DNA of 64,000 bases from Candidatus Bathyarchaeota archaeon. Its GTDB lineage: Archaea; Thermoproteota; Bathyarchaeia; Bathyarchaeales; Bathycorpusculaceae. Location of the stretch: positions 416,001 through 480,000 of the forward strand of contig OY970340.1 in the NCBI GenBank assembly GCA_963717465.1, read 5' to 3'. Shown here one piece after another: positions 7,901-31,183 of this stretch. Position numbers and translations under genes: made by a program. Each line of letters opens with the position of its first letter. Position 1 is the first letter of the stretch. The notes beneath the pieces are model-generated. The model was not told where the DNA came from. It ran no database searches and saw only the letters and a program-made list of their open reading frames with translations.

Positions 7901-8247
7901 AAACCTTAACGTTATATTTTTCCAGAATACCAGCTTTTTGCCAATTCGATTCCGCAGTTAAGTGCGGTTTGTCCCCCAAAACCCAGCAGTATTCCGTCTG
8001 GTTTTTCTTTCTGAATTACTTTTTCAACGTATTCAGGGGTGACTGGAAGAAGATACACTTTCCCTGATAAGCGTGGATCAGTCTGAATGGTTGCAATGTT
8101 GGGGTTAATCAGAACAGTTTCTATACCTTCTTCTCTTAACGCTTTAAGGCACTGGCTTCCAGAATAATCAAATTCTGCGGCTTCACCGATCTTTATTGCT
8201 CCACTGCCAAGCACCAGCACTTTATGTATCCAATCGAACTTGGGCAT
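4961..8247 (-). CDS. carB: Carbamoyl-phosphate synthase large subunit (2 frameshifts, near 7937 and 6206)
   Basis: [40 protein letters not shown] and a C-terminal MGS domain across three consecutive ORFs. Confidence 0.95.
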
Positions 8248-8249
8248 TT

Positions 8250-9395
8250 TTAGTTAGCCTCCAAAGTTTTTGCGAACATATCAAACAGCAACTCAGTATC
8301 ATACGGGCCTGGAGATGCTTCAGGATGCCATTGCACAGCAAAAACAGGCTTGCTCTTATGCTTGATGCCCTCAATGGTTTTATCGTTTGGATTAATGAAC
8401 CAAGATTCCAAGCGGCGTATTCTTCAATGAATCCTTGATCCACTGCGTAACCGTGATTTTGAGTAGTAATATAGCAGCGATTATTGTTTAAGTCGCGTGC
8501 AGGCTGGTTTTGGGCGCGATGACCGAATTTTAACTTGTAAGTGTCACCGCCCATTGATAAGGCAAGTATTTGGGCGCCAAGACAAATGCCCATTAACGGA
8601 ACCTTCTCAACGAGTTCACGGATGCACTCGATTGTTTTGGTGCATTTTTTAGGGTCTCCTGGCCCGTTGCTTAGGAAAACGCCGTTAGGTTTGTATGACA
8701 TTACTTCGCTAGCTGAAGTGTCGTAGGGCACGCGGACAACGTTTATTCCACGTTTTAGCAAGTTACGGATAATGCTGTATTTTACTCCGCAGTCAATCAG
8801 GACAACCGTGTATTTTCCGTCAACATTGTACTTAATGGGTTTTTTAACTGATACTTCTTTTACTAAATCGATTAAGTTTGGGTCTGCAATGCCATCACAA
8901 TAACTTTTGAGCCGTTCTAAGTTTGGCTCCTCATGTTCATCGAAAACTTGAAGAACCCCAAGCATGACCCCATGCATTCTAAGTTTCTTCGTTAACCGTC
9001 TAGTGTCAACGCCAGAGATTCCTGGTACACCCTCGTCGGCTAGCCACTTGTCAAGAGTTCTTGTTGATGCCCAATGATACGGTTCACGGCATAACTCATG
9101 AATGACTAAGCCTTGCACTTGAATATGATCTGACTCAAAATAAAGCGGGAATACCCAAGTTTAACTCGTTTGAAGGAACCCCATAATTGCCAACGAGCGG
9201 ATAGGTTAAGTTTAAAATTTGACCTTTATACGATGGGTCAGTAAGCGCTTCTGGGTAACCAACCATTGAAGTTGAGAACACTACTTCTCCTGAAATTTTT
9301 CCAGTTGCACCAAAACCTTTACCGACAAATGACGTCCCGTCTTCTAAGAGGAGAATTGCTTTCTTATTTTCTTGGTTGCTATGTTCTTGAGTCAA
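8250..9395 (-). CDS. carA: Carbamoyl-phosphate synthase small subunit (frameshifts near 9148 and 8410-8440)
   Basis: [39 protein letters not shown]; the WHPEASPGP end is recovered in another frame. Confidence 0.95.
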
Positions 9396-9411
9396 AGTCT
9401 AATACGTCCTG

Positions 9412-10934
9412 TCAATTCGAATTTTTAAATTTTGCGTTTGAAGAATTCTGGCTAGAGTAAGCGGTAACCACAGATTCCAACTTGCTTTCAACGTCGAGAA
9501 GAGACTGATTCAATTTCGAAACGCCGGTTTTCGCGTGTTCTAAGCATTTCTTTCTCTGTTTTAGGGCGCGCTCAACTTCAATTGATGAAGGACCACCTTG
9601 AACTTTATACGTTTCGACTATTTTACGAGGATTCGTACATGAAACGATATCCTTCTCTTTAATTGACAATTTTAAGCCAGCAGGTTTCCTCAGCAATTTT
9701 CTGGATTAACTCAGGAGTTGCATCAAGCAAAGTTTGCTTGGAATCAATCAGGGATTTTACGAGTGCACCGATTATTTTGTGTGCGGTTCTAAAAGGAACA
9801 TGGTATTGACGAACAAGCATGTTTGCTAATTCTGTCGCTCCAACAAAACCCGCAGATGCTTTATCCGTCGCATTTTCTGAGACTTTCAAGTTCGGCATAA
9901 GCTTCGCAAATAGGCTTAATGAAGTGGATATTGTATTGACCGATGTCCAAAGTTTAGGCGTAACTTCTTGAAGGTCCAAGTTGTAGGTTGTGGGCAAACT
10001 CTTAATCATCGCCGTTGCAGCTACGAAATCGCCAAGCACGCTGCTTGCTCTTGCCCGGATAACTTCGAGAACTTCAGGATTTTTCTTCTGGGGCATAATG
10101 CTGCTGGTGGATGTGAATTCATCGGGCAATTCAATTGTTCCGAATTCTGATGAACTCCAAATTATCAAGTCTTCTGCCAAACGGCTCAAGTTCACCGCGA
10201 GCAACGTTAGAGCAGATAATGTTTCAAGAATAAAGTCTCGGCTGCCCACCGCGTCAATAGAGTTTTCCAGTAAATCGTTGAATCCTAAGAGTTCTGCTGT
10301 ACGCTTGCGGTTTATTGGAAAACTTGTCGTTGCTAAAGCCCCAGCCCCAAGAGGATAGAGATTCACGTGTTCATAAGCGCCCATCAATCTTTGTAGGTCC
10401 CGATTTAAGGCGTCAAAGAAAGAAAGCAGGTAATGTGCAAACGTAACGGGTTGGGCTGCTTGCAGGTGAGTGTACTCTAAAATGACGGTTTCAACGTGTT
10501 TGCTGGCTGTCTCAAGTAGGCTAGTCTTGCATATCGAGCACTTGAATCATTAATTCAACGAGTTCTATTCGAAGCTCCATGCGGATGGCAGTTGCAACTT
10601 GGTCGTTTCTGCTTTTTGCAACATGAAGGTTTCCGCCGACTTCAGGTCCAGTTTCAGCTAAAACAGCTTCTTCCACTGCCAAGTGAACATCTTCAGCGGA
10701 AGGGTCAAGCTGCATGCTGGAGCATTTTTTTAAAGCCATTAAAAGTTTGGCGCCGTCTTGTGGATTAATTATTTTTTGTTCTATGAGCATTATGACGTGC
10801 GCTTTGTTGATAGCTACTACCGCATCGAATAGTTTTGCATCATCTTTTATTGAAGAAGTGAAGTGAGCAACGTCCTCCCGGACTGATGTCAATCGACCTC
10901 CACGGAGTATTTTTGACGTTTTTTCATCCTCCAC
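9412..10934 (-). CDS. argH: Argininosuccinate lyase (frameshifts near 10524 and 9685)
   Basis: SRNDQVATA, YTHLQxAQP (read between the ORFs), [10 protein letters not shown]. Confidence 0.95.
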
Positions 10935-10954: not shown

Positions 10955-12178
10955 TCAGGTTTGCTTGTTTTTTTCATTTTTTTTGCTTTTTGTTTTTTTC
11001 AGAGCATTGTACATTCTTGTTTGCAGTCCCCACAGTTCAATGAAACCGTGAGAATACGATTGGTTAAACGTAGTTTTGATGTTGTAATTAGCTAGGTTTT
11101 TATCGTAAAGCGACATTGGGGATGATCGCCCGATTACTTGAAGCCCACCCTTGTAGAGTTTCAGTTTTACTTCTCCATTGACGTTTTCTTGTGACTTGTT
11201 AATGAATGCATCCAAGTCATCCTTCAATGGATCCACCCACAGACCAGCGTAGGCTAGGAATACCCATTGAGCATCAATTTGTTGCTTAAACAAGACTTCA
11301 TGGCGAGTCATCACCATTTTCTCCAAGTCTTTGTGAGCCTCTAAAATTACTGTTGCAGCTGGACACTCGTAGATTTCTCGGGATTTTATCCCTACCAAAC
11401 GATCTTCAATATGGTCAATTCTGCCGACCCCGTTTCTTCCAGCAATTTTATTTACTTCTTGAATGAGTTTTAGCGGCTTCATTTTTTCATCGTTAACGGC
11501 GATGGGCACTCCAGCTTCAAACTTTAATGTAACTACTTCTGGCTTACTAGGAGCCTTTTCAGGAGAAACCGTCCATTCATAGGCATCATCAGGCGGCTCT
11601 TGACTTGCATCCTCCAGTAAGCCGCATTCGATTGCTCTTCCCCAAACGCTTGCATCTATACTGTATTTTTTTGCCGCAGTTGAAACGGGGATATCTTTTG
11701 TTTTCGCGTAGGCAATTTCTTCTTCACGCGTCATGCCCCATTCGCGGACAGGAGCAAGCACTTTCATGTCTGGCGCAAGTGAACCTAAGGTTACGTCAAA
11801 GCGCACTTGATCATTGCCTCGTCCAGTGCAACCATGAGCTAAGCCTGTTGCACCTTCCTTCACGGCGACGTCAACCATTTTCTTAGCGATTAATGGCCGG
11901 GAGAGACTTGTGCTGATGGGGTATTTGCCCTCGTAAAGTGCGTTGGCTTTAACGGCTGGAAAAATATAGTCTTGGGCAAACTCGTCTTTAGCATCGATTG
12001 AGAAATGTTTTAGAACGCCCAGCTTCTGAGCTTTTTTTCCAATTTCTGCTAAGTCTTCTTGCTGCCCAACATCAACTGTTACGGTTATAACTTGTGCATT
12101 GTACTTTTCTTGAATGTACTTGATTAGAACGGAGGTGTCTAATCCGCCGGAATATGCTAACACGATTTTTTCTGTTAT
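10955..12178 (-). CDS. argG: Argininosuccinate synthase
   Basis: LAYSGGLDTS, AHGCTGRGNDQVRF, GIKSREIYE; frame extends to ATA-ACA-GAA-AAA-ATC-GTG at 12178. Confidence 0.97.
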   Translation of the reverse strand: MTEKIVLAYSGGLDTSVLIKYIQEKYNAQVITVTVDVGQQEDLAEIGKKAQKLGVLKHFSIDAKDEFAQDYIFPAVKANALYEGKYPISTSLSRPLIAKKMVDVAVKEGATGLAHGCTGRGNDQVRFDVTLGSLAPDMKVLAPVREWGMTREEEIAYAKTKDIPVSTAAKKYSIDASVWGRAIECGLLEDASQEPPDDAYEWTVSPEKAPSKPEVVTLKFEAGVPIAVNDEKMKPLKLIQEVNKIAGRNGVGRIDHIEDRLVGIKSREIYECPAATVILEAHKDLEKMVMTRHEVLFKQQIDAQWVFLAYAGLWVDPLKDDLDAFINKSQENVNGEVKLKLYKGGLQVIGRSSPMSLYDKNLANYNIKTTFNQSYSHGFIELWGLQTRMYNALKKTKSKKNEKNKQT

Positions 12179-12235
12179 TTTGTTTGCTCCCCCATTTTTT
12201 GTTTCGAATTATTCCCCTTACCTTGCGGGCTGTAT

Positions 12236-12293
12236 TTTTAAACTTTGTGACTTTTTTGTTACTTAAGAAAATTTAAATGTCCCATTTGATACA
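12236..12293. promoter_or_regulatory. Divergent argG/ACT-regulator promoter with putative operator palindromes (GTGAC-N6-GTTAC; TGTCCCATTTGATACA)
   Basis: 42/58 ungapped identity with 24037-24094; TATA-like TTTAAAA (- strand) and TTTAAAT (+ strand). Confidence 0.7.
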
Positions 12294-12309
12294 TTTGAGT
12301 TAGTTTAGC

Positions 12310-12888
12310 ATGACAATCGCTCAAAACGTGAGAAATCACCTAAAAAACAAACCTTACCTGCTTGAAGCTTTAGAGAAAGGAATAGTTAACTTAAGCGAAT
12401 TATCAAGACAAATTCAAGAGGAATTAAAAACCAACAACACTAGTGCGGTTAAAGCCGCACTGAGACGCTTCTCCGAGGAACTGCAAAAACACAAACAAAA
12501 AAGAGAGGAAAAAGTACTTCACATCTTGAGATCAAGTGACATAATAGTTTATGATCGGAAAGCTGTTATGATAACGATGAAGGAAATCGAATTAAAGAAC
12601 GGCTTAAAAGTTGATTTACTCGGCAAACATGTTTACTTGATGGATAGAAACGATTTGCCAGAACGCGTAAACTCGCTTGTTAAACATGATAACTGCACGA
12701 TGATTGTTGTTCATTCCCCTGAGGAGCTGGAAGCAACCCCGGGAGTAGTTGCTTTCTTAACAACCTTACTAGCTGAGCAGAACGTGAACATAATTGAGTT
12801 TATTTCATGTTGGACAGAAACAATCATCGTTGTAGAAAAAAAAGACAGCCTAAAAGCTTATGAAGTTTTATCTAACACTGTGGATTAA
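12310..12888 (+). CDS. Putative amino-acid-sensing regulator (N-terminal HTH-like, C-terminal ACT domain)
   Basis: GIVNLSELSRQI...AVKAALRR N-domain; TPGVVAFLTTLLAEQNVNIIEFISCWTETII ACT domain; divergent from argG. Confidence 0.75.
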   Translation: MTIAQNVRNHLKNKPYLLEALEKGIVNLSELSRQIQEELKTNNTSAVKAALRRFSEELQKHKQKREEKVLHILRSSDIIVYDRKAVMITMKEIELKNGLKVDLLGKHVYLMDRNDLPERVNSLVKHDNCTMIVVHSPEELEATPGVVAFLTTLLAEQNVNIIEFISCWTETIIVVEKKDSLKAYEVLSNTVD

Positions 12889-12957
12889 AATGCACGAATA
12901 AACAGAAAAAAACACTTAAAGCAACATTGATAAAGCATGCTAAAATAAGAGAGGAAA

Positions 12958-13911
12958 ATGATGCCCTTAAAACAAGTCACACTTAAATCACCGGCTACGA
13001 GTGCTAACCTTGGTCCTGGCTTTGATGTTTTCGGGTTAGCCTTAGATCAGCCAAGCGATAAAGTAATATTAACATCTATTTCAAGAGAAATAAGAATACA
13101 AATAAACGGGCTTTCAGCAAACACAATTTCGCCTGTTCCAGAAAAAAATACTGCAGGAATTGTTGCCAAAAAAATAATGACAGATTTCTCAATAGGAACG
13201 GGTTTACTGATAAAAATTGAAAAAGGCATCATACCAGGAAAAGGCCTTGGAAGTAGCGCCGCGTCAGCTGCAGCGGTGGCTTACGGTTTAAACCGAATGT
13301 TCAACCTCGGCTTAGATAATGTTAAACTAATTGAGTACGCTGCAAAAGGAGAAGTTGCCTCAGCAGGTTCAGAACATGCAGATAATGTTTCAGCAACAAT
13401 ATGCGGAGACTTTGTAATAATCAAGTCGTACAATCCGCTACAAATAGTAAACTATGAATGCCCCAAAAACATGGAAATAAGCATAGCACTTCCAAAAATG
13501 GTTACACCTCCAAAAAAGACTGAAAAAGCCCGTTCAGTAATCCCAAAAATGATACCATTAGAAAAACTGGTCTATAACGTGGGAAAAGCTGCAGCTATGG
13601 CAAGCGGTTTCGCGGCAGGAAACGTTGATTTAATAGGGGAATCAATGTGTGATGATGTTGTAGAACCTGCTAGAGCCCCGTTAATTCCAGGCTACGCTAT
13701 GGTTAAGGAAAATGCATTAAAGGCAGGAGCATGCGGAGTAGCAATAAGCGGGGCAGGACCAGGCATGCTTGCGGTGGTTAACAAGAAAAAAGCTGATGCA
13801 ACCAAAGTTGCTTTGGCGATGAAAGAAGGCTTCAAATCAGCCGGGTTAGATTCGATTGTTATTGCAACTAAGCCTGGAAAGGGTGTAAGTTTACTGGAGA
13901 TAAAACAATGA
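12958..13911 (+). CDS. thrB: Homoserine kinase
   Basis: PATSANLGPGFD, GLGSSAAS, HADNV, ISGAGP. Confidence 0.96.
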   Translation: MMPLKQVTLKSPATSANLGPGFDVFGLALDQPSDKVILTSISREIRIQINGLSANTISPVPEKNTAGIVAKKIMTDFSIGTGLLIKIEKGIIPGKGLGSSAASAAAVAYGLNRMFNLGLDNVKLIEYAAKGEVASAGSEHADNVSATICGDFVIIKSYNPLQIVNYECPKNMEISIALPKMVTPPKKTEKARSVIPKMIPLEKLVYNVGKAAAMASGFAAGNVDLIGESMCDDVVEPARAPLIPGYAMVKENALKAGACGVAISGAGPGMLAVVNKKKADATKVALAMKEGFKSAGLDSIVIATKPGKGVSLLEIKQ

Positions 13912-15164
13912 CTCATCAAGAATGTATAAAATGTGGGGCAAAATACGATATAGACGAGATTGTCTATTTTTGCAAGAAATGCAGAGATATTCTTGAAATA
14001 AAAATTGATTTCGATGAGTTATCAGAAACACTGAAAACAAGCGAATGGAAAAAAACGCCGATTTCAGTCTGGCGGTATAAAGATTTTATGCCTATTCATG
14101 AAGCCGCAAGGGTTGTCACATTAAATGAGGGGGGAACCGGTCTTCACCGTTCCAATCGGTTAGGCGACGAGTTAGGATTAAAAAATCTTTACGTCAAAAA
14201 CGAAGGAGAAAATCCCACAGGATCTTTCAAAGACAGAGGCATGACTGTCGGCGTAACGAAAGCCACAGAACTCGGCGCAATACATGTCATATGCGCTTCA
14301 ACGGGCAATACTTCAGCAAGTTTAGCAGCTTACGCTGCAAGAGCAGGCTTAAAATGCACAGTGCTAATCCCCTCGGGTAAAATTGCTTACGGAAAACTTT
14401 CTCAAGCCATGATTCACGGCGCTAAAGTGTTGCAGGTTCGAGGCAACTTTGACCAAGCTTTAGAATTTGTACTTGAACTTGCCGAAAAACATAACAGTAT
14501 TTACCTTTTGAACTCGATTAATCCGTTCAGGATTGAAGGACAAAAATCTCTCGGGTATGAGATTTGTGAACAATTAAACAATGAAGCGCCTGATCGGGTT
14601 ATTGTACCTGTTGGTAATGCTGGAAACATAAGCGCTATTTGGAAGGGCTTCACTGAATTTCATAAGTTAGGTTTCATAAAGTCGCTTCCTAAAATGACAG
14701 GCATTCAAGCAGTTGGCTCAGCGCCTATAGTTCAAGCAATCAAAAATAACAGTGATGAAATTACGCCAGTGCCTAATCCTGAAACAGTCGCTACTGCTAT
14801 ACGCATCGGTGCGCCAGTAAGCTGGAGAAAAGCAGTAAACGCAATACGAGACTCCTTTGGAACAGCCGAAACAGTTACTGACGACGAAATCTTGGATGCC
14901 CAAAAACTGTTGGCACGTGTTGAAGGAATTTTTGTCGAGCCGGCAAGCGCATCGTCAATTGCAGGGTTAAAGAAGCTAGTCAGTATGGGAGTTATTGATA
15001 GAGACGAGCGTATAGTCTGTGTAACAACTGGTCACGGACTTAAAGATCCTGATACAGCAGTTAAGATGAGCGAGAAACCAGTTGAAGTTGACGCTGATAT
15101 AAGCGCTATCGAAAACGTTTTAGGATTAAAAGGGCAAACAACAACGCCTTTCTCGGTGAATTAG
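13908..15164 (+). CDS. thrC: Threonine synthase
   Basis: NPTGSFKDRG, ASTGNTSAS, PVGNAGN, TGHGLKDP; N-terminal Zn ribbon. Confidence 0.96.
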   Translation: MTHQECIKCGAKYDIDEIVYFCKKCRDILEIKIDFDELSETLKTSEWKKTPISVWRYKDFMPIHEAARVVTLNEGGTGLHRSNRLGDELGLKNLYVKNEGENPTGSFKDRGMTVGVTKATELGAIHVICASTGNTSASLAAYAARAGLKCTVLIPSGKIAYGKLSQAMIHGAKVLQVRGNFDQALEFVLELAEKHNSIYLLNSINPFRIEGQKSLGYEICEQLNNEAPDRVIVPVGNAGNISAIWKGFTEFHKLGFIKSLPKMTGIQAVGSAPIVQAIKNNSDEITPVPNPETVATAIRIGAPVSWRKAVNAIRDSFGTAETVTDDEILDAQKLLARVEGIFVEPASASSIAGLKKLVSMGVIDRDERIVCVTTGHGLKDPDTAVKMSEKPVEVDADISAIENVLGLKGQTTTPFSVN

Positions 15165-16190
15165 ATGAGGATAATCCTAATAGGTTACGGTATTGTAGGT
15201 CGAGGCTTAATAGATATTCTCCAGCGTCGCCAAGCTGAAAACTTGAAAAACTTTGGGTTAAATCCGAAAATTGTAGCCGTTGTTGATATAGATGGCGCAA
15301 TCACAAATCCTAGAGGATTAGATTTCGAAAGACTGCAACTGCTTAAGAAAGAACGCACAGTTTCAATTGACAAGGAATTTGGTCACCCCAAAATGTCTGC
15401 TTCTGAAGTCTTAGACTCGATCGAAGCTGAAGTTGTTGTTGAAGCGACTCCGACAAACATAAAGAATGCTGAACCTGCACTTTCGCATATAACTAAAGCT
15501 TTCAAAACAGGCAAACATGTTGTTACCACAAACAAGGGACCACTAGCTTTAGCTATGCCTGCATTAACCGAATTGGCAGATTACAATCGAGTGCACCTGC
15601 GTTTTAGCGGAACCGTTGGCGGTGGAACCCCTATGCTCGAATTTGCCAAAAGATGCCTTGCAGGAGACAGAATCATGGCTATTCGCGGCATCCTAAACGG
15701 CACAACCAACTATATCCTAACAGAAATGAGCCAAAAACACATGCCCTTCGAGCAAGCTCTTGCCAACGCACAGAAACTGGGTTACGCTGAAACCAATCCA
15801 TCCATGGATGTCGACGGTTTCGATGCAGCATGTAAAATCGTGATAATGTCTAATTGGATAATGAACAAGAAATGCACTCTAAAAGATGCCAGCATCAAAG
15901 GCATAAGAGACGTTGCTTTAAATTCTCTTAAAAACGCCGCTAAGAAAGGCAACACTATAAAACTTATCGCTTCAGTAGATGATGACAAACCTAAGGTTGC
16001 CCCAACAGAGGTCGCGTTAAATAATCCTCTATGTGTCAGCGGGGTGCTTAACGCTGTTACCTTCGTCTCTGAATTTGCAGGAGAAGAAACTATTGTCGGC
16101 CGAGGCGCCGGAGGCATGGAGACGGCGAGTGCAGTTTTAAGAGACCTCTTAGACATAAGACATAAGTTAGCAACTAAAATGTTAACATAA
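15165..16190 (+). CDS. hom: Homoserine dehydrogenase
   Basis: GYGIVG, HVVTTNKGP, GILNGTTNYIL, GRGAGGMETASAV. Confidence 0.95.
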   Translation: MRIILIGYGIVGRGLIDILQRRQAENLKNFGLNPKIVAVVDIDGAITNPRGLDFERLQLLKKERTVSIDKEFGHPKMSASEVLDSIEAEVVVEATPTNIKNAEPALSHITKAFKTGKHVVTTNKGPLALAMPALTELADYNRVHLRFSGTVGGGTPMLEFAKRCLAGDRIMAIRGILNGTTNYILTEMSQKHMPFEQALANAQKLGYAETNPSMDVDGFDAACKIVIMSNWIMNKKCTLKDASIKGIRDVALNSLKNAAKKGNTIKLIASVDDDKPKVAPTEVALNNPLCVSGVLNAVTFVSEFAGEETIVGRGAGGMETASAVLRDLLDIRHKLATKMLT

Positions 16191-16206
16191 ACAAGGGACT
16201 GGAAAA

Positions 16207-17613
16207 ATGAAGATAGTGATGAAGTTCGGTGGAACCAGTGTTGCCAAAGGCGAAAACATTCGTCATGTAGCGGACCTGGTTGTTAAGAATGCAAAAGGTA
16301 ACAAGGTCATCGTTGTTGTTTCAGCGTTGGCAACTGTTACGAATAAGCTTATTGACATGGCTGAGCAAGCCGCAAAGAGCGAAGAAAAACAAATCCAACA
16401 GTTCACAACGGAGCTACTTGAAAGACATTTGGACGAAATCGCTTCAGCCATAACCGATAAAAAAATTCAAAAAGAAACCGAGCAAATCACAAGAAAATCA
16501 ATTACAGAACTTGAAAAAGTTCTAACGGGCATATGCTATGTTCGGGAGTTAACACCTAAATCCAAAGATTACGTGCTATCCTTTGGAGAGAGGCTTTCTG
16601 CACCAATAGTCAACGGTGCAATTAAAGACCACAATTTGGAAGCCCAATGGTTCACCGGAAAAGATGCAGGAATCGTGACAGACTCAAATTTTGGCGATGC
16701 CAGCCCGCTGATGAATTTTACCACACATCTTCTACGGGAAAAACTTGAACCGCTATTGGAGAAAGGCGTTATCCCAGTTATAAGCGGATACATCGCTGCC
16801 AACCAAGATGGCGTAGTAACAACGCTTGGACGCGGCGGCTCTGATTATACGGCTACTATACTGGGCGCTGCGTTAGAGGCGGATGAAGTTTGGATTTGGA
16901 CTGATGTTGACGGTATATTGACTACTGATCCAAAGATTGTTCCGAAAGCAAAAATGCTCAGCCAACTTAGCTATCAGGAAGCAGCTGAAATGGCGATTTT
17001 CGGCGCCAAAGCCATGCATCCCCGTGCACTTGAACCTGCAATTAGAGAAACCATTCCGGTCAGAATAAGAAGCGTTTTCAACCCTGCAAACTCTGGAACC
17101 CTCATCACGAAACATCCGAAGGCGAAAGCTTCAGAAGTCGTCAAAGCCGTTGCCATGATTAGAAACGTGGCAATGCTTAATGTTAACGGTGCTGGCATGG
17201 TTGGCGCACCAGGCAGCTACGCCAAAGTTTTTGAAGTACTGGGCAAGAACGGCATAAACGTAATGATGATTTCCACCGCAGTTTCCGAAGCCAACATGAG
17301 CCTGATAATACGACGAAACCTGCTGGCAAGGGCAGTAAGTACAATTGAAATAGCGTTAATGGATGGCAAAAGCGTCGTCAACGAAGTAACATCAGAGGAC
17401 GACGTCTGCGTCATCGCAGTGATGGGAGCAAACATGAAAGGCACGCTCGGCGTGGCCTCAAAAATATTTGAAACCGTAGCAAAAGCAGGCATAAACATAC
17501 GCATGATTGCACAAGGCTCATCTGAACTGAACGTTTCATTTGTAGTCGCAGAAAAAGACGGAGAAGCAGTAGTGAAAGCCATTCATGATGAATTCAAACT
17601 TGACAAACTATGA
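16207..17613 (+). CDS. lysC: Aspartate kinase (2 ACT domains)
   Basis: MKFGGTSV, TTLGRGGSDY, WTDVDG, QGSSE. Confidence 0.95.
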   Translation: MKIVMKFGGTSVAKGENIRHVADLVVKNAKGNKVIVVVSALATVTNKLIDMAEQAAKSEEKQIQQFTTELLERHLDEIASAITDKKIQKETEQITRKSITELEKVLTGICYVRELTPKSKDYVLSFGERLSAPIVNGAIKDHNLEAQWFTGKDAGIVTDSNFGDASPLMNFTTHLLREKLEPLLEKGVIPVISGYIAANQDGVVTTLGRGGSDYTATILGAALEADEVWIWTDVDGILTTDPKIVPKAKMLSQLSYQEAAEMAIFGAKAMHPRALEPAIRETIPVRIRSVFNPANSGTLITKHPKAKASEVVKAVAMIRNVAMLNVNGAGMVGAPGSYAKVFEVLGKNGINVMMISTAVSEANMSLIIRRNLLARAVSTIEIALMDGKSVVNEVTSEDDVCVIAVMGANMKGTLGVASKIFETVAKAGINIRMIAQGSSELNVSFVVAEKDGEAVVKAIHDEFKLDKL

Positions 17614-17631
17614 TTCTTCTAACTTGTGAAT

Positions 17632-18252
17632 TTATTTTCTGGCTAGAATCGCGTTCCATGGCGTGTTATCTTTAGTGAAAATTTGAACATCCGCAAAACC
17701 GACAGATTGCATGATATCGCTTATTTCTTGCAACGGAAAAAGATGCACCTGCGTTTGCTGGATCAGTTTTGCATTTTTAATCTCATACACACCGTCCTTT
17801 ACCATTTCGTTCACCATAAGCAGTTTTCCATCTGGTTTTAATACTCGTTTTATTTCTTGCAGAGCCTCAGAAAAATTAGGCCAAAAATAATATGTCTCAA
17901 TAGCTGTTACCAGATCAAAGAGATTATCTGAAAAACCCATTTTCCCAACTGACTCTTCAATTATCTCCACACGATTTTGGGCAATCAATTTCTTGTTAAC
18001 TTTTTTGGAGTACTCAACCATATCAGCGGAATAGTCGATGCCAAAAACTTTTCCCGTAGCCACTCGTTGAGCTAACCGGCTAACAGTTGCGCCGCCACCA
18101 CAACCCACATCCAAAATTAGATAATCCGACTCGATTTGCGCATGCGATAAACCCCACAATGTTAAGGGAGCATGTCCGCGATTCATCATTGCAGCAACGA
18201 GTCTGCCTCGAAGGCCTTTTGGGTGTTTAAATTGATTCATTATTCCAAACAT
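17632..18252 (-). CDS. Class I SAM-dependent methyltransferase
   Basis: ILDVGCGGG, GIDYS, FDLVTAIETYYFWP. Confidence 0.85.
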   Translation of the reverse strand: MFGIMNQFKHPKGLRGRLVAAMMNRGHAPLTLWGLSHAQIESDYLILDVGCGGGATVSRLAQRVATGKVFGIDYSADMVEYSKKVNKKLIAQNRVEIIEESVGKMGFSDNLFDLVTAIETYYFWPNFSEALQEIKRVLKPDGKLLMVNEMVKDGVYEIKNAKLIQQTQVHLFPLQEISDIMQSVGFADVQIFTKDNTPWNAILARK

Positions 18253-18278
18253 CGATTGTCCCCAAAACGGGAAAAATT

Positions 18279-19424
18279 CTATGACGTTTGCTTTCCGTTG
18301 CCATTGTTCTTGTGTAGCTCAGACAGTTTCAGGATTGTTTCTTTGTAAACTTGGATGCTGTCTAAGTATTCACTTATGTCAATGTGCTCATCAGTTGTAT
18401 GGTCTAAGTGTGATTCGCCGGGTCCATAAGTGACTATTGGCAGGTTCATAGCTTTGCCTAAAATGTTCATGTCGCCGGTTCCTGTCTTTCGCAGAAGCGT
18501 TGCAGGTTTGTTAAGGACTTTTCTAACTGAAGCGGAAAGTGCATGCACAAGCGGCGAAGCTTTGTTTACTTCGAACGGTTCGACTGTGTCCTCGATGGAA
18601 GCTTTTACGTAGATTTTTGGGTTAGCTATCCTGAACCATGAAAATATTTTTTGGAGATCCTCAAAGACTTGGCTGGCAGTATATTGCGGAGGAACCCTAA
18701 CGTCAATGAACATTTCGCTTTCATAAGGAATTACCGAGTTACCTCTGCCGCCAGAGAGTTTAGTTAGGCAGACTGTTACAACGTTAAAGGGGCTTTCTTG
18801 ATTCTCCTGTTTATCAGTCGGCGAGTAAATGTACGCACTTTTTATTTGACCCCAAAGCTCGTTTGCTTTTTCAAGAGCATTATCGTAAAGCCACGGCGTG
18901 GAAGAGTGCCCAGTTTGCAGTTTCAGCACTACTTTAAGCTGTATTTGACCCTTATAGCCGATTGTTATATTTTCAACTCCACTGGGCTCGCCGAAAATTG
19001 CGTAATCAGCCTTTATACCCTCTGATATCAAGTGTCTAATTCCGCTACTAGTAGCCTCTTCCTCCACGACGCTGGCAACTAATACGCTGCCACTAAACGA
19101 CGGGTCCTTAGCGGCATATGCAGCGCCTAAAACAAGTGCGGCAAGCGGGCCTTTAGCGTCAACAGCTCCGCGAGCGAATATTTTTCCTTCTTCAATTCGA
19201 AGGGGGATATGCCCTGAAACAGTGTCCATGTGACCGCACAGCATAATTGTGGGTTCACCTTTGCCTAAGAAGCCTACCACGTTGCCGATTCTGTCTTTTC
19301 CAACGTCAAACCCTAGCTTAACCATTTCTTCAGCTAGGAAATTGGCTATCTCCTCCTCTTTGCCAGAAGGACTGTAAATGCCCAACAGGTTAGTTAGAAA
19401 CCGTACTGCTGCTTGCTCGCTCAC
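18279..19424 (-). CDS. lysK: [LysW]-lysine/[LysW]-ornithine hydrolase (M20 peptidase)
   Basis: GHMDTV, RGAVDAKGP, VEEE, GEPS, YGPG..HT; operon context. Confidence 0.9.
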   Translation of the reverse strand: MSEQAAVRFLTNLLGIYSPSGKEEEIANFLAEEMVKLGFDVGKDRIGNVVGFLGKGEPTIMLCGHMDTVSGHIPLRIEEGKIFARGAVDAKGPLAALVLGAAYAAKDPSFSGSVLVASVVEEEATSSGIRHLISEGIKADYAIFGEPSGVENITIGYKGQIQLKVVLKLQTGHSSTPWLYDNALEKANELWGQIKSAYIYSPTDKQENQESPFNVVTVCLTKLSGGRGNSVIPYESEMFIDVRVPPQYTASQVFEDLQKIFSWFRIANPKIYVKASIEDTVEPFEVNKASPLVHALSASVRKVLNKPATLLRKTGTGDMNILGKAMNLPIVTYGPGESHLDHTTDEHIDISEYLDSIQVYKETILKLSELHKNNGNGKQTS

Positions 19425-20605
19425 GTTCTTCCTCTCCTAAAACTTCGTCAAGAACTGAAAGGGCCTTATCAATTTGCGCTTTATCAATTACTAATGGAGG
19501 CAACAGGCGCACGACAGTTTTGCCTGCGTCAAGTACAAGAACACCTTTTTCTAATGCTTTAAGGATCACGCTTAAGAACATCATACCGAAGTTCAACGCC
19601 AAGCATTAAGCCTAAACCGCGAACTTCCTTGATAATCTTATGGTTAGCCTGAAGTTCTTCCAGTTTGCTCTTGAAGTATTTGCCGTTGACTGCTGCCCTC
19701 TCAGCAAGCTTCTCCTCAACTAGCACATCTATAGCTGCGCATCCTGCTGCACAAACCAGTGGGCTACCACTAAAAGTGGTTGAGTGCTCACCAACTTTAA
19801 GCGAAGACATAATGTTCTCTTTAGCTACAGTTATGCCGATTGGTAAGCCGCCAGCAAACGGCTTAGCTAAACACATTACATCCGGCGTGACGCCCCAGTT
19901 TTCGCACCCGAAAAGTTTGCCCGTACGCCCAAAACTTGTTTGCACTTCATCAAACATTAACAAGACGCCCTTTTGACTACAGATTTCGCGGACTTCCCGC
20001 AGGTAGCCGTCTGGTGGAACCCGCACGCCGCCTTCACCGCGAATCGGCTCCATGAGAACCGCAGCTGTTTTATCAGTTATTGCTTCGCTTATTTTTTGAG
20101 CATTGTCAGGGGGCACATGCTTAATTTCTGGAACCAAGGGCTGGAAGGGCTCGCGGTACTTTTTGTCCCATGTTGCGGATAGGGCGCCCATTGTTTTTCC
20201 GTGAAAGGCTCCCATTAACGCGATTATTTCTGGTTTTCCAGTGAACTTGCGTGCCAGTTTAATGGCGCATTCGATGGATTCCGCGCCGCTGTTTGACAAG
20301 AACGCTTTATCCAAACCCTTTGGAGTTATGCTTACGAGTTTTTGTAGGAATTCAGATCGTTTATCGTTGTAGTAGCCGCTGTGGCATGAAATCAATTTTT
20401 CAGCTTGATTGGAAATTGCGCTTACAATTTTTGGGTGACAATGACCAAGCAACGCAACGCCATAACTGCTCGAGCAATCCACATATTCTTTGCCGTTTAT
20501 GTCCCAAACAATGGCTCCTTTACCTTTCGTTAATACTACGGGTCTTTTGGCGAAGACATTTGCCATAAAACGGTTTTCAGTTTCAATAACAGTTTTTTCA
20601 TCCAC
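19390..20605 (-). CDS. lysJ: [LysW]-aminoadipate/glutamate semialdehyde aminotransferase (frameshift near 19573)
   Basis: NSGAES, FHGKT, DEVQT, LAK PLP lysine, RLLPPL in the second ORF. Confidence 0.9.
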
Positions 20606-21407
20606 TTGTTATCACGGTACCTGCCTTTCGATTTATAACATTACTTATCGGGTTTTCTCCCTCACCTGAAGTAACTAAAACTTCACTGACGCCTTGATTG
20701 AGAGCTTCCAATGCCGCATGCACCTTAGTGCTCATCCCTTGCCCAACACTGGATAAGACTTCCTTAACCTCAGTTGCAGTTATTTTCGGTACAACTTCAC
20801 CTTTAAGCTTCAAGCCTTGAACATCTGTCAAAAGGATTAAGCAGTCAGCTTTTAAGGCACCTGCAATTATGGCGGCTGTTCGGTCACCATCAACGTTTAA
20901 CGGCTCAAAGTCTTGGCTAATCGAAATAGGCGTAACTATTGGCACGTAGCCATGTTCAAGCAGCAGATGCAGCAGTTCAGTGTTAACTTTGGTTATTTTT
21001 CCCGTGTAGCCGCCATCGATTACTTTTTTTCTGCCACGCTCATCAACCGCGATTAGTTTTGTTTTGCGTTCAGCCGAAAGAAAGCCGGCATCTAAACCTG
21101 TTATGCCTACAGCGTTTACGCCTTGGCTTTGTAATGCTAGAACTATTTGCTTGTTAATCTTGCCAGCCATAACCATAGTGTAAATTTCTATTGTTTCCTT
21201 GTCAGTGTAGCGGCTCCGGAAGCCTTCAGGGGAAATTATGAATTTTTGTTCTTTGCCCAGCTTAGAAGCGATGTCGGTGACTTCTGCTCCTCCACCGTGA
21301 ACCAACACGATTTTGTGCTCTTTTGCGACTTCCTTTACGTCCGCAACGAGGGATTGCGCTGCGCCTTCTTTGAGAATGCTTCCGCCCATTTTTATTACAA
21401 GCAGCAT
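20598..21407 (-). CDS. lysZ: [LysW]-aminoadipate/glutamate kinase
   Basis: VIKMGG, VHGGG, SPEGFRSRYT, NVDGDR. Confidence 0.93.
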   Translation of the reverse strand: MLLVIKMGGSILKEGAAQSLVADVKEVAKEHKIVLVHGGGAEVTDIASKLGKEQKFIISPEGFRSRYTDKETIEIYTMVMAGKINKQIVLALQSQGVNAVGITGLDAGFLSAERKTKLIAVDERGRKKVIDGGYTGKITKVNTELLHLLLEHGYVPIVTPISISQDFEPLNVDGDRTAAIIAGALKADCLILLTDVQGLKLKGEVVPKITATEVKEVLSSVGQGMSTKVHAALEALNQGVSEVLVTSGEGENPISNVINRKAGTVITSG

Positions 21408-21412
21408 AATTA

Positions 21413-22468
21413 TCACATCGGATGGAAACCAGTGCTCTTTAAGCCTGTGGTTTCATCTATACCCAATAGTATGTTTAGGCATTGAACTCCTTGACCAGAG
21501 GCGCCTTTTACCATGTTGTCTAATGCCGAGAACAGTAATAGACGGTTTGCATGTTCATCTATCTCAAACCCTATGTCACAATAGTTTGTGCCAACAGTTA
21601 CTTTGGGGTCAGGTAGCTGGCATGGTCCTTTCTGATACTTAACAAAGCGTATAAACGGTTCTTCCACGTATGTGCTGCGAAATGCCTTCCAAACGTCCTT
21701 GTTGGCTATGGCTTGTTTAGGGAAAGTGTGGATTGTCGCCAAGATTCCGCGAATCATATTCACTGCATGAGGCGCAAAGGAGATTTTTACTGGTTCATTC
21801 GTTAAAAGCCCAAGTTCCTGCTCAACCTCAGCGATGTGACGATGCCGCGCAATCATGTATGGTCTAACTCCGCTGGCGCGTTCAGGATGATGCGAAGAAG
21901 CTGATGGCTTGCTACCGCCGCCTGAAGAACCAACCTTCAAATCCACAACAATCTTGTCTTTCTCGATTAATCCAGCTTTAACCACTGGCGCCAAGCCTAA
22001 AATGGCGGAGGTTGCCATGCAGCCTGGGCAGGCTATCAGCTTAGCCTTTTTAATTTCTTCACGGTGAAACTCAGGTAACCCGTAAACGGCTTCTTTGAGC
22101 ATTTCGGCATGAGCATGTTTCCAACCGTACCACTTGTCGTAATCAGCAGAGTTCTTTAATCGAAAATCTGCGCTCATATCAATAACTTTTAAACCTGCAG
22201 CCAAAAGCTTAGGCACAAGGTTCACTGAGCCGCCATGAGGGGTTGCAGTGAAAACTAAGTCGCAGTTTTTTTGCAGTTCAGCATTGTCTTGAGGAACAAA
22301 TTTTAACTGTGTGAGTCCGCGCAGGTTTGGATGCATATTAAAGACGTATTCGCCTACGCTTTGGCGTGAAGTAACCATGGTCACTTCTACTTGCGGGTGA
22401 AGGAGCAGTATGCGTAGGAGTTCTCCTCCGACGTATCCTGAACCGCCGATTATGCCGATTCTCAACAT
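21413..22468 (-). CDS. lysY: [LysW]-aminoadipyl/glutamyl-phosphate reductase
   Basis: GGSGYVGGE, SADFRL, CPGCMAT, HHPER, DNMVKGASG. Confidence 0.93.
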   Translation of the reverse strand: MLRIGIIGGSGYVGGELLRILLLHPQVEVTMVTSRQSVGEYVFNMHPNLRGLTQLKFVPQDNAELQKNCDLVFTATPHGGSVNLVPKLLAAGLKVIDMSADFRLKNSADYDKWYGWKHAHAEMLKEAVYGLPEFHREEIKKAKLIACPGCMATSAILGLAPVVKAGLIEKDKIVVDLKVGSSGGGSKPSASSHHPERASGVRPYMIARHRHIAEVEQELGLLTNEPVKISFAPHAVNMIRGILATIHTFPKQAIANKDVWKAFRSTYVEEPFIRFVKYQKGPCQLPDPKVTVGTNYCDIGFEIDEHANRLLLFSALDNMVKGASGQGVQCLNILLGIDETTGLKSTGFHPM

Positions 22469-22487
22469 TTTCATTTTGCCTCGTAAT

Positions 22488-23672
22488 TTATTTATCGATA
22501 AGGCTCTGAGCACCTTTCAGCAGTGGTATAGCCACGTTAAGTCCTGTCGAAAGACGAGTGTTTTCCCAGAATTCTGGGCAAGAGTTCGCTTCATGAAACA
22601 CTAATTCTTTTTTATTTTTCTGTATGCTTTCTTCAATTATATTTTTTATGTTCTCATATGGCTTGCTAACCTTGTAATTGTTAAAAGCCTCTTCAAGCTT
22701 AGCATTCCAAGCAGGGAAATTTGTTAGGCGAGTTTCGTCCTGTTTGATTTTTTGAAACGCCGCAAAAGCCTGCGACGCCTTGTCAAGCTCACTTTTCAGG
22801 TAATCATCGGTTGCATTCTTGTTTTCTTTCACGTTAATCATAGCATCCAAGGCGAAAATCCATGCTTGATTGCCTTTTCCAAGAGTGTTGCCGCATTTCA
22901 CGGCTAACGCTTGAATGCTGGAGGGCAGTTTAGCGTCGAATATTAAGTTGCCGAGGAAAGTGTTAGTTCTAAAATCTTTTAGGCCGCCTCTTGCCATCGC
23001 CGATGGGTGGCATACAGCTTGTTTTCCTTTTTCTTTAAATACCAAGATTCTTAAATCATAAAACCATTTTTGAACCTGCTCCTGCGCGACAACACCGATG
23101 GGATTAATTATTGAAGGCTTAGTTTCCGCAATGTTCGAAAGTAGTTCTTCGCGGTTTTGGGAAAGCATGATCATTTTGCCATGGGTTCCCGCGTCTGCTT
23201 TAATTACAATCCCTTTTTCTATTGGCAGTTCTTCTTGGAACAGGTCAGCGATGTCTTTTTCATTCCGGATTTCTTTCCCATTTTTCAATGCATCTGACGC
23301 GTCGCAGGGTACAAAAATGGTTTGTGGAATTGGTAATCCTGCTTTCCAAAGGCAGAGCAGAGTGCGAAGTTTACTGTAGCACAAGAATTCTACTGATGAT
23401 GAATTCAAGGTTTTTTTGCCTAGCATTTCCATGCAGTATGATGCTTGGAGACGACGATTCTTGCTCTGTGCACGATTTAGTACAACGGCGGTTTCATTAA
23501 TAGTCGGCTTGTAGTCTTTTCCTTTTGTTTTAGCGTTGAAACCATTTTTAGAAATTGACAGGGCGATTTTTCTGAAAGGAATAAAAGTAAGCGGTATTCC
23601 AAGTTCTTCAGCGGTTTTTTTAATGCCGTTTTCATCGTTTTCAGAGCGTTCATAAAGAAGGGCTATGCTCAT
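22488..23672 (-). CDS. Divergent ATP-grasp ligase of the LysX/ArgX/RimK family with a ~75-aa insertion
   Basis: NRAQS, GTHGK, QE, DLR, FRTNT and HEANSCPEF match ATP-grasp LysX motifs; lies between lysW and lysY. Confidence 0.75.
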   Translation of the reverse strand: MSIALLYERSENDENGIKKTAEELGIPLTFIPFRKIALSISKNGFNAKTKGKDYKPTINETAVVLNRAQSKNRRLQASYCMEMLGKKTLNSSSVEFLCYSKLRTLLCLWKAGLPIPQTIFVPCDASDALKNGKEIRNEKDIADLFQEELPIEKGIVIKADAGTHGKMIMLSQNREELLSNIAETKPSIINPIGVVAQEQVQKWFYDLRILVFKEKGKQAVCHPSAMARGGLKDFRTNTFLGNLIFDAKLPSSIQALAVKCGNTLGKGNQAWIFALDAMINVKENKNATDDYLKSELDKASQAFAAFQKIKQDETRLTNFPAWNAKLEEAFNNYKVSKPYENIKNIIEESIQKNKKELVFHEANSCPEFWENTRLSTGLNVAIPLLKGAQSLIDK

Positions 23673-23766
23673 CGCTTTTCTGCTTCCACAAGAAATTTAA
23701 TAACTAAAAAAATCAAAAAACTCAAAAAACTGATTAATCTTGGGGTGGTTAGATAGATAATACTGT

Positions 23767-23997
23767 TTATTCGCCCCAGTCTTCCCCTTCAATCGTTAAT
23801 TCTTGAAGGTCTACGCATCCGCCTTGTATTTGTTTGACTTCGAGTTCTAATCCGCAACCAGGGCAACTTACGATCTCTCCCTTCTCTATGTCGGATGGTA
23901 CATCAAGTTCTGCGTCACAATCGGGGCATTTTGCTTTATTTATTCCTTTCACCTCTTTAGAATTTGAATTAACTGGTTTAATCATTTCATTCTTCAC
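23767..23997 (-). CDS. lysW: Amino-group carrier protein LysW (true start possibly ATA at 23943)
   Basis: CPDC...CPGC Zn ribbon and C-terminal EDWGE. Confidence 0.95.
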   Translation of the reverse strand: MKNEMIKPVNSNSKEVKGINKAKCPDCDAELDVPSDIEKGEIVSCPGCGLELEVKQIQGGCVDLQELTIEGEDWGE

Positions 23998-24036
23998 TTT
24001 TTTATTGGAAATGCTCTTTCAATAAATGTGGCTAAC

Positions 24037-24094
24037 TTTTAAACGTTGTGACTTATTTATGACAAGTTAGACACTAAGTGTACCATTTGAAACA
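24037..24094 (-). promoter_or_regulatory. lysW operon promoter/operator, second copy of the argG block
   Basis: ttttaaacgttgtgac...tgtaccatttgaaaca; same spacing as 12236-12293. Confidence 0.7.
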
Positions 24095-24194
24095 AAAAGC
24101 CATGGTCCCAAGGAGCAGGCAAGCCCTTATTGTAGGCAATAAAAATTAAACATGAGCAAGTTCCAAAACTAAAAATAGCTTCTTTTCTGATAAA

Positions 24195-24401
24195 TTAAAC
24201 AGGAAGTTTATCACTTTGCTGAACGTTAACCCGCCTAATTCTTCTAAAATCCCATACAGCACCCACTAAAACAACAGAACAGACAATAAAAACAGCAGCC
24301 AGAGTAATCCAGGAAAGGCTCGTTCGAACTACAGATGCGCCAGGGATAAAATAAGCGACATACTCCGGGTCATGCTCAATCGAATTTCCACTCAACGCCA
24401 A
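24195..24401 (-). other. Small membrane-protein ORF or gene remnant
   Basis: 68 aa with one hydrophobic helix followed by a basic tail; weak start. Confidence 0.3.
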
Positions 24402-24527
24402 TCAATATGGCTATGAGCAAAATAGCAAACCTTTTGCGTTAACCGACTCATTAATTTTTCAACACATCCCAAAATTGGGATCTAGCACTATTAAAATATT
24501 GCAATTGAAATAATTTGGATAGTTGGC

Positions 24528-24564
24528 ACATTCCTCATAAACCAGGGTTTCAAGCGTTTGCATG
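24528..24564 (+). repeat. Imperfect direct repeat, copy 1 (partner 26900-26936)
   Basis: 32/37 identity, core GGTTTCAAGCGTTTG. Confidence 0.8.
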
Positions 24565-28689: not shown

Positions 28690-28740
28690 CGGGCGACGTG
28701 AAGGCGAAGACTGTTCATACTGTTGATTTGAGGGAGGTGA

Positions 28741-30772: not shown

Positions 30773-31183
30773 ATGGATGAGACTGACAAGAAAATAATTA
30801 AGCTACTCAAAGATGACGGAAGAGCAGGCTACGGTGAAATCGGAGCCAAGGTTGACTTAACTGAAGGAGCCGTTAGAAAAAGAATAAAGACGTTAATCGA
30901 TGATGGAATCATAAGAAAATTCACGGTTAAGATGGGAATTACAGAAGGCGCTGAAGCCATAACTCTGCTCGCTATAAACCCCGCGTTTCCAACTCAAGAA
31001 GTCTCAAAAAGAATACAGGCCATTCCGAACGTTGAAACAACCTACGAAGTAACGGGCGAATACGACATTGTAGCAGTCATAGGTGGAATGAACGTGGTAG
31101 AAGTAAACGAGTGCATAGAAAAAATCCGCCATGTCGAAGGCATAATGAAAACAAACACCATGATCGTACTACGCAGCTGGTAA
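30773..31183 (+). CDS. lysM: Lrp/AsnC regulator, LysM-like
   Basis: EGAVRKRI HTH; PTQEVSKRI...YEVTGEYDI...TNTMIVLRSW resembles crenarchaeal LysM. Confidence 0.7.
   Translation: MDETDKKIIKLLKDDGRAGYGEIGAKVDLTEGAVRKRIKTLIDDGIIRKFTVKMGITEGAEAITLLAINPAFPTQEVSKRIQAIPNVETTYEVTGEYDIVAVIGGMNVVEVNECIEKIRHVEGIMKTNTMIVLRSW

Follow-up and report, generated by a model that had tools for sequence, protein, structure and literature searches.

Description

Here, we describe a 58-bp block that occurs twice in a window of 64,000 nucleotides from a Candidatus Bathyarchaeota archaeon (contig OY970340.1, positions 416,001 to 480,000 of the forward strand), upstream of argG-argH-carA-carB and upstream of a lysW-type operon, and a third time elsewhere in the same genome (G000; 3.05 Mb, single contig, completeness rating 88%). 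Comparative genomics gives good support for reading this block as a promoter module with two operators that marks out a small arginine regulon, made up of argG(-argH-carA-carB), lysW/argX-argC-argB-argD-argE and a lone second carrier gene, lysW2. The protein encoded divergently from argG at 12310-12888 (window positions here and below, unless called genome positions), which joins an N-terminal DUF7523 domain to ACT-like domains and appears to represent an uncharacterised family, is on balance the likeliest of several candidates to bind the module. An original prediction, made from the letters of the window alone, had reported the two copies and proposed this protein as a regulator of both operons; new here are the confirmation and extension of that observation and the comparative support for the regulon.

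Promoter module

The two copies (12236-12293 and 24037-24094) match without gaps at 42 of 58 positions, exactly where they were first reported; shifting the alignment (offsets -3 to +3) gives just 13-24 matches, and in 2000 mononucleotide shuffles of both intergenic regions the best 58-mer averaged 28.4 matches and peaked at 35, with none reaching 42. As argG (10955-12163) and lysW (23767-23985) are both on the - strand, the two copies are oriented alike relative to their genes. Identity is concentrated in two blocks separated by a divergent spacer, which recovers the TATA-like box, adjacent semi-palindrome and 16-bp palindrome first described. Block 1 holds the TATA box (12233-12242 and 24036-24043, - strand) and TGTGAC-N6-GTTACT or ATGACA (12246-12263 and 24047-24064, respectively), and block 2 is TGTnCCATTTGAnACA (12278-12293 and 24079-24094). 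The element first called a semi-palindrome is present and is better described as an inverted repeat, GTGAC-N6-GTYAC, which is a perfect GTGAC-N6-GTCAC in 5 of 21 species.

In its general form the module pairs a 16-bp distal dyad, TGYAYCAAATGGNACA, with a proximal one, TGTRAC-N6-GTYACA, that abuts the TATA box; the dyad centres are 31 bp apart (about three helical turns), and four TGTNNC-type half-sites form the two dyads with spacers of 4 bp (distal) and 6 bp (proximal). Read in gene direction, the order is distal dyad (TGTATCAAATGGGACA at argG, TGTTTCAAATGGTACA at lysW), divergent spacer, proximal dyad (AGTAAC-AAAAAA-GTCACA at argG, TGTCAT-AAATAA-GTCACA at lysW), three or four bases, and the TATA box TTTAAAA. 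The proximal dyad overlaps the position of the transcription factor B (TFB) recognition element (BRE), immediately upstream of the TATA box, in all three classes of module. At argG, block 2 falls between the TTTAAAT (12272-12278) and the ATG (12310) of the divergent gene, as had been claimed.

A zero-mismatch scan of the 3.05-Mb genome gave two matches to TGTNCCATTTGANACA and two to AAACNTTGTGACTT, all at the argG and lysW sites. Position matrices built from relatives brought to light a third complete module (genome 2998433-2998490), 2.58 Mb away from the window and 48 bp upstream of the lone 63-codon lysW2 (genome 2998536-2998727), which encodes a second LysW/ArgW carrier; the proteins of lysW1 (the gene in the window) and lysW2 both end in EDWGE. 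With a matrix rebuilt from 49 modules of other species only, the sites of G000 itself being excluded, the genome scan scored argG at 68.7, lysW at 48.4 and lysW2 at 39.5 bits, the next best site scoring -8.9 (genome mean -104, standard deviation 18); the motif is confined to three sites in this genome and is not scattered over many unrelated promoters. The matrix scan found no module upstream of argF (genome 1803017), lysM or thrB, where the best scores are all negative, and the earlier statement that the thrB upstream region lacks the motif holds. Single-box matches elsewhere (e.g. genome 2398826, 1497948, 3006355 and 672258) have no partner box at the fixed spacing and were therefore treated as chance.

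Conservation across the genus

The genus comprises at least 62 species genomes. An alignment of 23 argG-ACT intergenic regions, from which one locus whose contig ends 13 bp upstream was left out, shows both boxes and both TATA boxes clearly, and the pattern AWWTRRNRCAN{26}GTCNNAANNTTWAA has 108 matches in 47 of 47 genus genomes, against 1 for a reversed control. These matches form three sequence classes (argG, lysW1 and lysW2), whose consensus sequences agree in 39 of 66 columns, all of them in the boxes and the TATA box, and whose flanks do not align. Upstream of lysW, all 30 of 30 loci have the proximal box with no more than 3 mismatches, and 21 of 30 have the distal box with no more than 2, in every case 40 bp upstream of the proximal box; the distal box of the remaining nine is a variant, and in five of these (one subclade) the central AAAT is flipped to ATTT and the proximal-box spacer is inverted too, the AAAT/ATTT flip being exactly what a symmetric site would tolerate. 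Further upstream, beyond the module, the lysW sequences do not align. These comparisons support the view, already put forward for the two copies in the window, that the shared block is a selected cis-element, which apparently keeps its position and spacing and is restricted to promoters of the arginine pathway, with lysW2 as a third target.

Twenty pattern matches, chosen as not obviously belonging to argG or lysW1, were fetched: 10 precede an intact lysW2, 2 a broken lysW2, 2 argG (G014 and G041), 2 (weaker) a zinc-ribbon gene and 3 a stretch without an open reading frame (ORF), and 1 is unclear. The weaker matches (L081 in G010, L085 in G023) lie 39 bp upstream of a gene for a 111-aa zinc-ribbon protein that, read by eye, resembles transcription factor S (TFS) or RNA polymerase subunit M, and could be either chance or a further target. 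At L075, L078 and L087 (G045, G011 and G002) a lysW2-type module is followed, in place of lysW2, by a conserved ORF-less stretch of ~270 nt that has no copy in G000 and a minimum free energy, taken without shuffle comparison, of -76 kcal/mol per 300 nt; Rfam gave no family in this stretch, nor in window 11900-31000. It may be an RNA of a new type under the same control.

Candidate regulator

The 192-aa product of 12310-12888 matches Pfam DUF7523 (PF24367) over residues 2-71 (41.4 bits, cut-off 27, E 2.3e-10) and ACT_7 (PF13840) over residues 126-188 (40.4 bits, cut-off 27, E 2.6e-10), domains carried by 60 and 61 of 63 diverse relatives, respectively. It has 1505 homologues at E <= 0.001, many labelled 'aspartokinase' by one source, and after clustering at 50%, 285 clusters match at E <= 1e-10, mostly at full length. 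An AlphaFold (AF2) model built from an alignment of the 63 diverse members has a predicted local distance difference test score (pLDDT) of 96.9 and was used in place of a discarded single-sequence prediction (pLDDT 52). It consists of helices 3-12, 15-23, 28-39 and 44-74, the last one long, followed by two ACT-like units. Residues ~63-192 superpose on the aspartokinase regulatory domain 5yei_C (Z 13.6, root-mean-square deviation (rmsd) 2.2, 119 residues) and on VC0802 (1zvp_A; Z 13.3, rmsd 2.6, 123 residues), and the model also matches 3c1m_A (Z 12.9), with a Foldseek E of 4e-6 for the tandem ACT fold. The N-terminal domain has the family pattern G-x-x-N-Y-S-x-L-A-R...A-L-x-R, with R53 invariant and N27 near-invariant. 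The protein had been called 'HTH-like + ACT': the ACT part stands (ACT_7 and the tandem fold), and the helix-turn-helix (HTH) label comes down to four helices and a sequence pattern that match no HTH family and no sequence of a solved structure.

No ArgR-family model is among the Pfam and NCBIfam matches of this protein, and HTH_AsnC and AsnC_trans_reg of the Lrp/AsnC family, both present in the LysM-like protein at 30773-31183, are absent from it. The aspartokinase label was rejected: the protein matches just positions 333-404 of the 406-position model and has no kinase catalytic domain. A full-text literature search, with subscription journals outside its coverage, found no publication on the DUF7523-ACT family. 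A homodimer prediction scored 0.31 against a mark of 0.42 and was used neither for nor against dimerisation.

Gene order ties this protein to the module. Its gene is divergent from argG in 21 of 24 genus loci, and thrB is the next gene after it in 7 of the 24. All 5 genomes from four other families of the order again have a ~225-aa homologue divergent from argG, 25% identical over its full length in two of them and aligning by the ACT part alone in the other three; there a different 16-bp dyad, TGACC-N6-GGTCA, overlaps the ACT-gene start and TGACCAAAA abuts the argG TATA box, and the lysW promoters share nothing with the ACT/argG elements of the same genomes. Phylum-wide, 84 of 201 genomes and 44 of 93 genera have members of the DUF7523-ACT family, and 23 of 27 loci lie beside argG (8), carA-carB (7), Lys/Arg/Orn-type binding proteins (5) or peptide-binding proteins (3), where the Lys/Arg/Orn type is the best match of five polar-amino-acid binding proteins, below curated cut-offs, and one remaining locus was left unscanned. 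Six of the eight binding-protein genes are divergent from the ACT gene within about 100 bp. In two genus genomes in which argG is not adjacent (G014 and G006), the ACT gene retains its TATA box and distal box, and the unlinked argG of G014 retains a complete module of its own; in G052 the module lies between the ACT gene and carA. It is the phylum-wide synteny, and the distal box kept at its own promoter, that make the ACT protein the best candidate binder. Within the home family, a close ACT orthologue and the module occur together in genera g1, g18 and g21, with LysM also in g18 and g21; G205 (g20) has a LysM 59% identical, no full-length ACT protein and no module, and G075 and G191 have none of the three.

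Alternative readings

Several points weigh against assigning the module to the ACT protein, or against the arginine regulon itself. The co-occurrence of module and protein within the family could reflect shared ancestry among few related genomes, and, these genomes being related to one another, it carries little weight by itself. For the N-terminal ~75 residues, Pfam at E <= 1 gives DUF7523 but no HTH or other DNA-binding family, stray sub-threshold HTH matches each occur in just 1 of 21 members, and the N-terminal profile has no match among Protein Data Bank sequences below E 0.18, so that DNA binding by this protein is something we infer; the fold search scarcely probed this domain (best match there an FF domain, Z 6.2), and an Atlas feature search with it returned just the same DUF7523 clusters (scores <= 0.87). 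A subunit that regulates an enzyme could equally have the ACT fold, and thrB-thrC-hom-ask come after the gene in G000. Dyad spacers that differ (4 and 6 bp) are unusual for a single protein. By the matrix scan argF, an arginine-pathway gene, is outside the regulon, and lysM and lysW are divergent neighbours in 28 of 30 genus loci, which puts LysM in a good position to act there.

It is conceivable, although unlikely, that the LysM-like Lrp-type regulator encoded at 30773-31183, of the feast/famine regulatory proteins (FFRPs), binds the module and that the ACT protein is no more than a neighbour, or else a regulatory subunit of an enzyme. A distance of 31 bp between two sites would suit the cooperative binding of Lrp-type proteins. 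The LysM-like protein scores 166 bits on the LysM model, and Sulfolobus LysM binds upstream of the lysW BRE/TATA, its binding being weakened by lysine, arginine and other amino acids (PMC3597687, available part of the text). The case is weakened by a separate Lrp-type motif, CGRATTTCG (CGRWTTTCG), that most of the 30 genus loci, G000 excepted, carry in the interval from lysM to the module and that resembles the archaeal FFRP consensus NNNNN[AAT/ATT]NNNNN obtained by SELEX (PMC2715240, as far as the accessible text goes). An element of this type (CTACGGATTTCGTAG; TCCGAAAT abutting a TATA box) accompanies lysM outside the genus as well, in G040 (CTACGGATTTCGTAG; LysM 64% identical), G028, G034, G035 and G038, and in G205, where lysM faces dapA-dapB. 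The module boxes are even dyads of 16 and 18 bp, against a 15-bp LysM box in the accessible part of PMC3597687, a comparison of length and symmetry alone; the lysM promoter itself has no module, G205 and G040 have LysM and no module, and in G000 a 6.7-kb insertion has removed the lysM side of the intergenic region and left the module intact.

A second alternative, improbable yet the most plausible of the alternatives, is that some other factor reads the module, either an unlinked transcription factor or a paralogue of TFB or the TATA-binding protein (TBP) for which an extended BRE (GTCACAA) would mark a class of promoters. TFB exists as several paralogues in ammonia-oxidising archaea, every class of module has the proximal box at the BRE position, and the N-terminal domain of the ACT protein has no DNA-binding family match. 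Against this, the dyad symmetry of both boxes and the flipped distal variant speak for a symmetric oligomer and not for TFB, the promoter of the ACT gene again has the distal box when this gene is unlinked from argG, and the divergent ACT-argG pairing is kept in other families with other dyads. That the ACT protein is instead the small-molecule-sensing partner of an enzyme (aspartokinase, ArgG or carbamoyl-phosphate synthase), the boxes being bound by something else, has a low probability: the tandem ACT fold equals an aspartokinase regulatory domain or beta subunit, close homologues bear the aspartokinase label and the threonine genes and ask follow the gene in G000, but the genuine aspartokinase at 16207-17613 aligns with its model over the whole length (1-467 of 468), with its own regulatory part, thrB follows the ACT gene in a minority of genus loci, and the transport-gene neighbours across the phylum, mostly divergent, have the layout expected of a regulator and not of an enzyme subunit. 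An enzyme-partner role also leaves the conserved four-helix N-terminal domain, with its invariant R53 and near-invariant N27, unexplained. Least probable by far is that the similarity is a relic of promoter duplication or gene conversion without regulatory meaning, as the shared TATA-proximal sequence of the three promoters and the paralogy of lysW1 and lysW2 might suggest; argG and lysW have no relation to each other, the spacing does not vary by even one base pair, and in 47 of 47 species the boxes have been kept where spacers and flanks have drifted apart.

The DUF7523-ACT protein is the binder we consider most likely. The proposal that it co-controls both operons stands as regards the shared module and the best candidate by synteny, and its assignment as the binder is our inference.

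Proposed mechanism

The 12310-12888 protein would bind both dyads as an oligomer joined through its tandem ACT domains, which would sense arginine or a pathway intermediate, and once bound would block access of TFB and TBP at the three biosynthetic promoters. It would also repress its own gene, a step proposed because the distal dyad at argG lies between the TATA box and the start of the ACT gene. In the co-repressor form of this model the ligand-loaded oligomer (with arginine or a late intermediate) would occupy both dyads on one face of the helix. Sites at the BRE/TATA, or between TATA box and start, are the usual positions of archaeal repressors, and a proximal dyad 3-4 bp from the TATA box together with a distal dyad between TATA and ATG favours the co-repressor model; repression is preferred to activation by a narrow margin. 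Activation without ligand, as with LysM, is the alternative, and the poor BRE of these promoters would fit dependence on an activator.

A broader reading, held tentatively and at somewhat less than even confidence, is that the DUF7523-ACT proteins of Thermoproteota form a hitherto unrecognised, phylum-wide family of transcription factors that respond to amino acids, chiefly to arginine, a functional counterpart of ArgR with a new DNA-binding domain and lineage-specific operators, and that in the home family (g1, g18, g21) the regulator also captured the lysW/ornithine operon and the second carrier gene, the operon of sister families having a LysM-type motif only. If true, this would add a new DNA-binding domain family and an example of regulon rewiring, in which the lysW operon passed from LysM-type to ACT-regulator control.

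In G000, thrB, thrC, hom and aspartokinase follow the ACT gene on the same strand (12310-17613), with a 69-bp gap before thrB; if they are co-transcribed, the distal box would also gate the threonine genes in this genome, an arrangement restricted to the 7 of 24 genus loci with thrB next.

Target genes and neighbouring features

Features of the window are collected in Table 1. The lysW cluster encodes a carrier, a RimK/LysX-type ligase and argC-, argB-, argD- and argE-type enzymes, as for a carrier-protein route to ornithine. Its argC is the only one in the genome, argJ was not found in a search of the genome (rated 88% complete), and dapA and lysA are present, so that lysine would be made by the diaminopimelate (DAP) route and the carrier pathway would supply ornithine. 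By gene content the cluster is the sole ornithine route found in the genome, which bears out the earlier claim that it feeds arginine synthesis. As a LysW-type carrier route to ornithine has already been proposed for a marine ammonia oxidiser (PMC6038301, in the part of the article available), this assignment is correct but not new.

Table 1. Coordinates of the module elements, candidate regulator, target genes and LysM-like gene in the window
Feature	Position	Strand	Description
argH, carA, carB	4961..10934	-	Downstream of argG, each split over 2-3 frames; NCBIfam matches to consecutive parts of argH and carbamoyl-phosphate synthase small-/large-subunit models
argG (argininosuccinate synthase)	10955..12178	-	NF001770, 568 bits; first gene of argG-argH-carA-carB; probable ATA start (12178-12176) after GGGGGAG
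TATA box, argG operon promoter	12233..12242	-	TTTAAAAATA on - strand; TTTAAAA invariant in 21/21 genus argG modules
Proximal box at argG	12246..12263	.	TGTGAC-TTTTTT-GTTACT inverted repeat, 3-4 bp from TATA (BRE position); top genome-wide matrix score, 27.2 bits
TATA-like TTTAAAT of divergent ACT-protein gene	12272..12278	+	32 bp ahead of ATG; conserved in 23 aligned upstream regions
Distal box at argG/ACT gene	12278..12293	.	TGTCCCATTTGATACA, 16-bp dyad between ACT-gene TATA and ATG; 29.7 bits, genome best
Candidate regulator, 192 aa	12310..12888	+	Four-helix N-terminal domain (DUF7523) and tandem ACT-like domains
LysW/ArgW carrier (23767-23985), LysX/ArgX-like ligase, argC-, argB-, argD- and argE-type genes	18279..23985	-	NF041070, TIGR00768, TIGR01850, NF010662, TIGR00707, NF003367
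TATA box, lysW operon promoter	24036..24043	-	TTTAAAAG on - strand; conserved in 30/30 genus loci
Proximal box at lysW	24047..24064	.	TGTGAC-TTATTT-ATGACA; 22.5 bits, second best in genome
Distal box at lysW	24079..24094	.	TGTACCATTTGAAACA
LysM-like Lrp/AsnC regulator	30773..31183	+	NF040947, 166 bits, cut-off 180; ~6.7 kb from lysW in G000

The start codon of argG (within 12176-12193, - strand) seems to be non-canonical. In 16 of 21 genus loci the codon that aligns with the G014 ATG reads ATA, in 2 it reads ATT and in 2 ATC, and in L013 the ATA occurs one codon further downstream; this codon stands 8-9 nt after GGGGGAG, and in several species the interval from the upstream stop to the essential AYSGG motif contains no ATG, GTG or TTG. 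In the LysX/ArgX-like ligase (22488-23672, - strand; 394 aa), family matches stop near residue 267, and an ACT domain in the C-terminal ~125 residues was rejected (hhalign probability 0.5%); a second, canonical RimK-family ligase gene (genome 2084227-2085075) has no module. An 11-aa ORF upstream of lysW (24102-24137) was dropped as a gene, as it is not conserved in relatives. Six genes, argH, carA, carB, the argD/lysJ-type gene, lysA and a CDF transporter gene, are each broken over 2-4 reading frames (window 4961-10934 and 19390-20605; genome 384923-386158; L060 7361-8729), which looks like assembly indel errors rather than gene decay.

The ~6.7 kb between lysW and lysM (24100-30772) encodes a 684-aa ORF without a family and TrmB-like, SnoaL-like, PNPOx-like and ArsR-type HTH proteins. 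This insertion, which ends right at the module, is absent from 28 of 30 other genus genomes, where lysM starts 125-140 bp from the distal box. In G205 (L122, 376-3408) lysM, which has asd behind it, is transcribed divergently from dapA-dapB; GCGATTTTCGTAA and TCCGAAAT plus a TATA box lie in between, and the region upstream of dapA in G000 (genome 380530-380790) has a similar ACTAAATTCGTAAAA plus TCGGAAAATTTAAATA; LysM may be a regulator of lysine synthesis (DAP route) in this lineage.

Comparison with known systems

To our knowledge, archaea lack ArgR, and the control of arginine synthesis in them is known in fragments, chiefly from LysM in Sulfolobus; we know of nothing on arginine control in ammonia-oxidising archaea, which are major players in soil nitrogen cycling. 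If the proposal is true, the ACT protein would fill the place of the missing arginine repressor. The analysis yields a precisely bounded operator, three target promoters and a named candidate with a confident model, from a family present in 84 of the 201 genomes sampled.

The fold of residues ~63-192 is shared with stand-alone tandem ACT_7 proteins of the VC0802/Atu0741 type and with the aspartokinase regulatory domain, which lack the four-helix N-terminal domain and have no linked operators. CASTOR1, a eukaryotic cytosolic arginine sensor with ACT_7, scored Z 6.6-7.5 in the fold search, and the family profile matches CASTOR1/CASTOR2 weakly (residues 90-193, E 0.065-0.13); unlike the candidate, CASTOR has four ACT domains and does not bind DNA, and the likeness, one of profile and fold, is weak and only a hint of an arginine ligand. 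In TyrR and NikR, a DNA-binding domain is fused to an ACT-type ligand domain that drives oligomerisation; this general design resembles the proposal, but these proteins have other DNA-binding domains and another architecture, and the searches showed no relation in sequence. ArgR/AhrC shares the proposed logic, as an oligomer with an amino-acid-binding C-terminal alpha/beta domain, paired palindromic boxes at arginine promoters (carAB, argG) and autoregulation, and ArgR C-terminal domains match the 12310-12888 model with Z 7.1-8.4 over 68-72 residues, within the range common to alpha/beta sandwiches. Unlike ArgR, the candidate has a tandem ACT sensor in place of the hexamerisation domain and an N-terminal domain other than the ArgR winged helix, and its boxes are unrelated to ARG boxes and stand at a promoter of the archaeal TATA/BRE type. 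LysM/FL11 is likewise an amino-acid-responsive archaeal regulator at the lysW promoter, upstream of BRE/TATA, with lysine and arginine as effectors (PMC3597687, in the portion of the text available) and with an ACT-like ligand domain (RAM), as in the candidate. It differs from the 12310-12888 protein in having HTH_AsnC and AsnC_trans_reg and, by the same portion of that source, a 15-bp odd palindrome instead of even dyads of 16 and 18 bp, and a true LysM with its own motif coexists in the same genomes as the ACT candidate.

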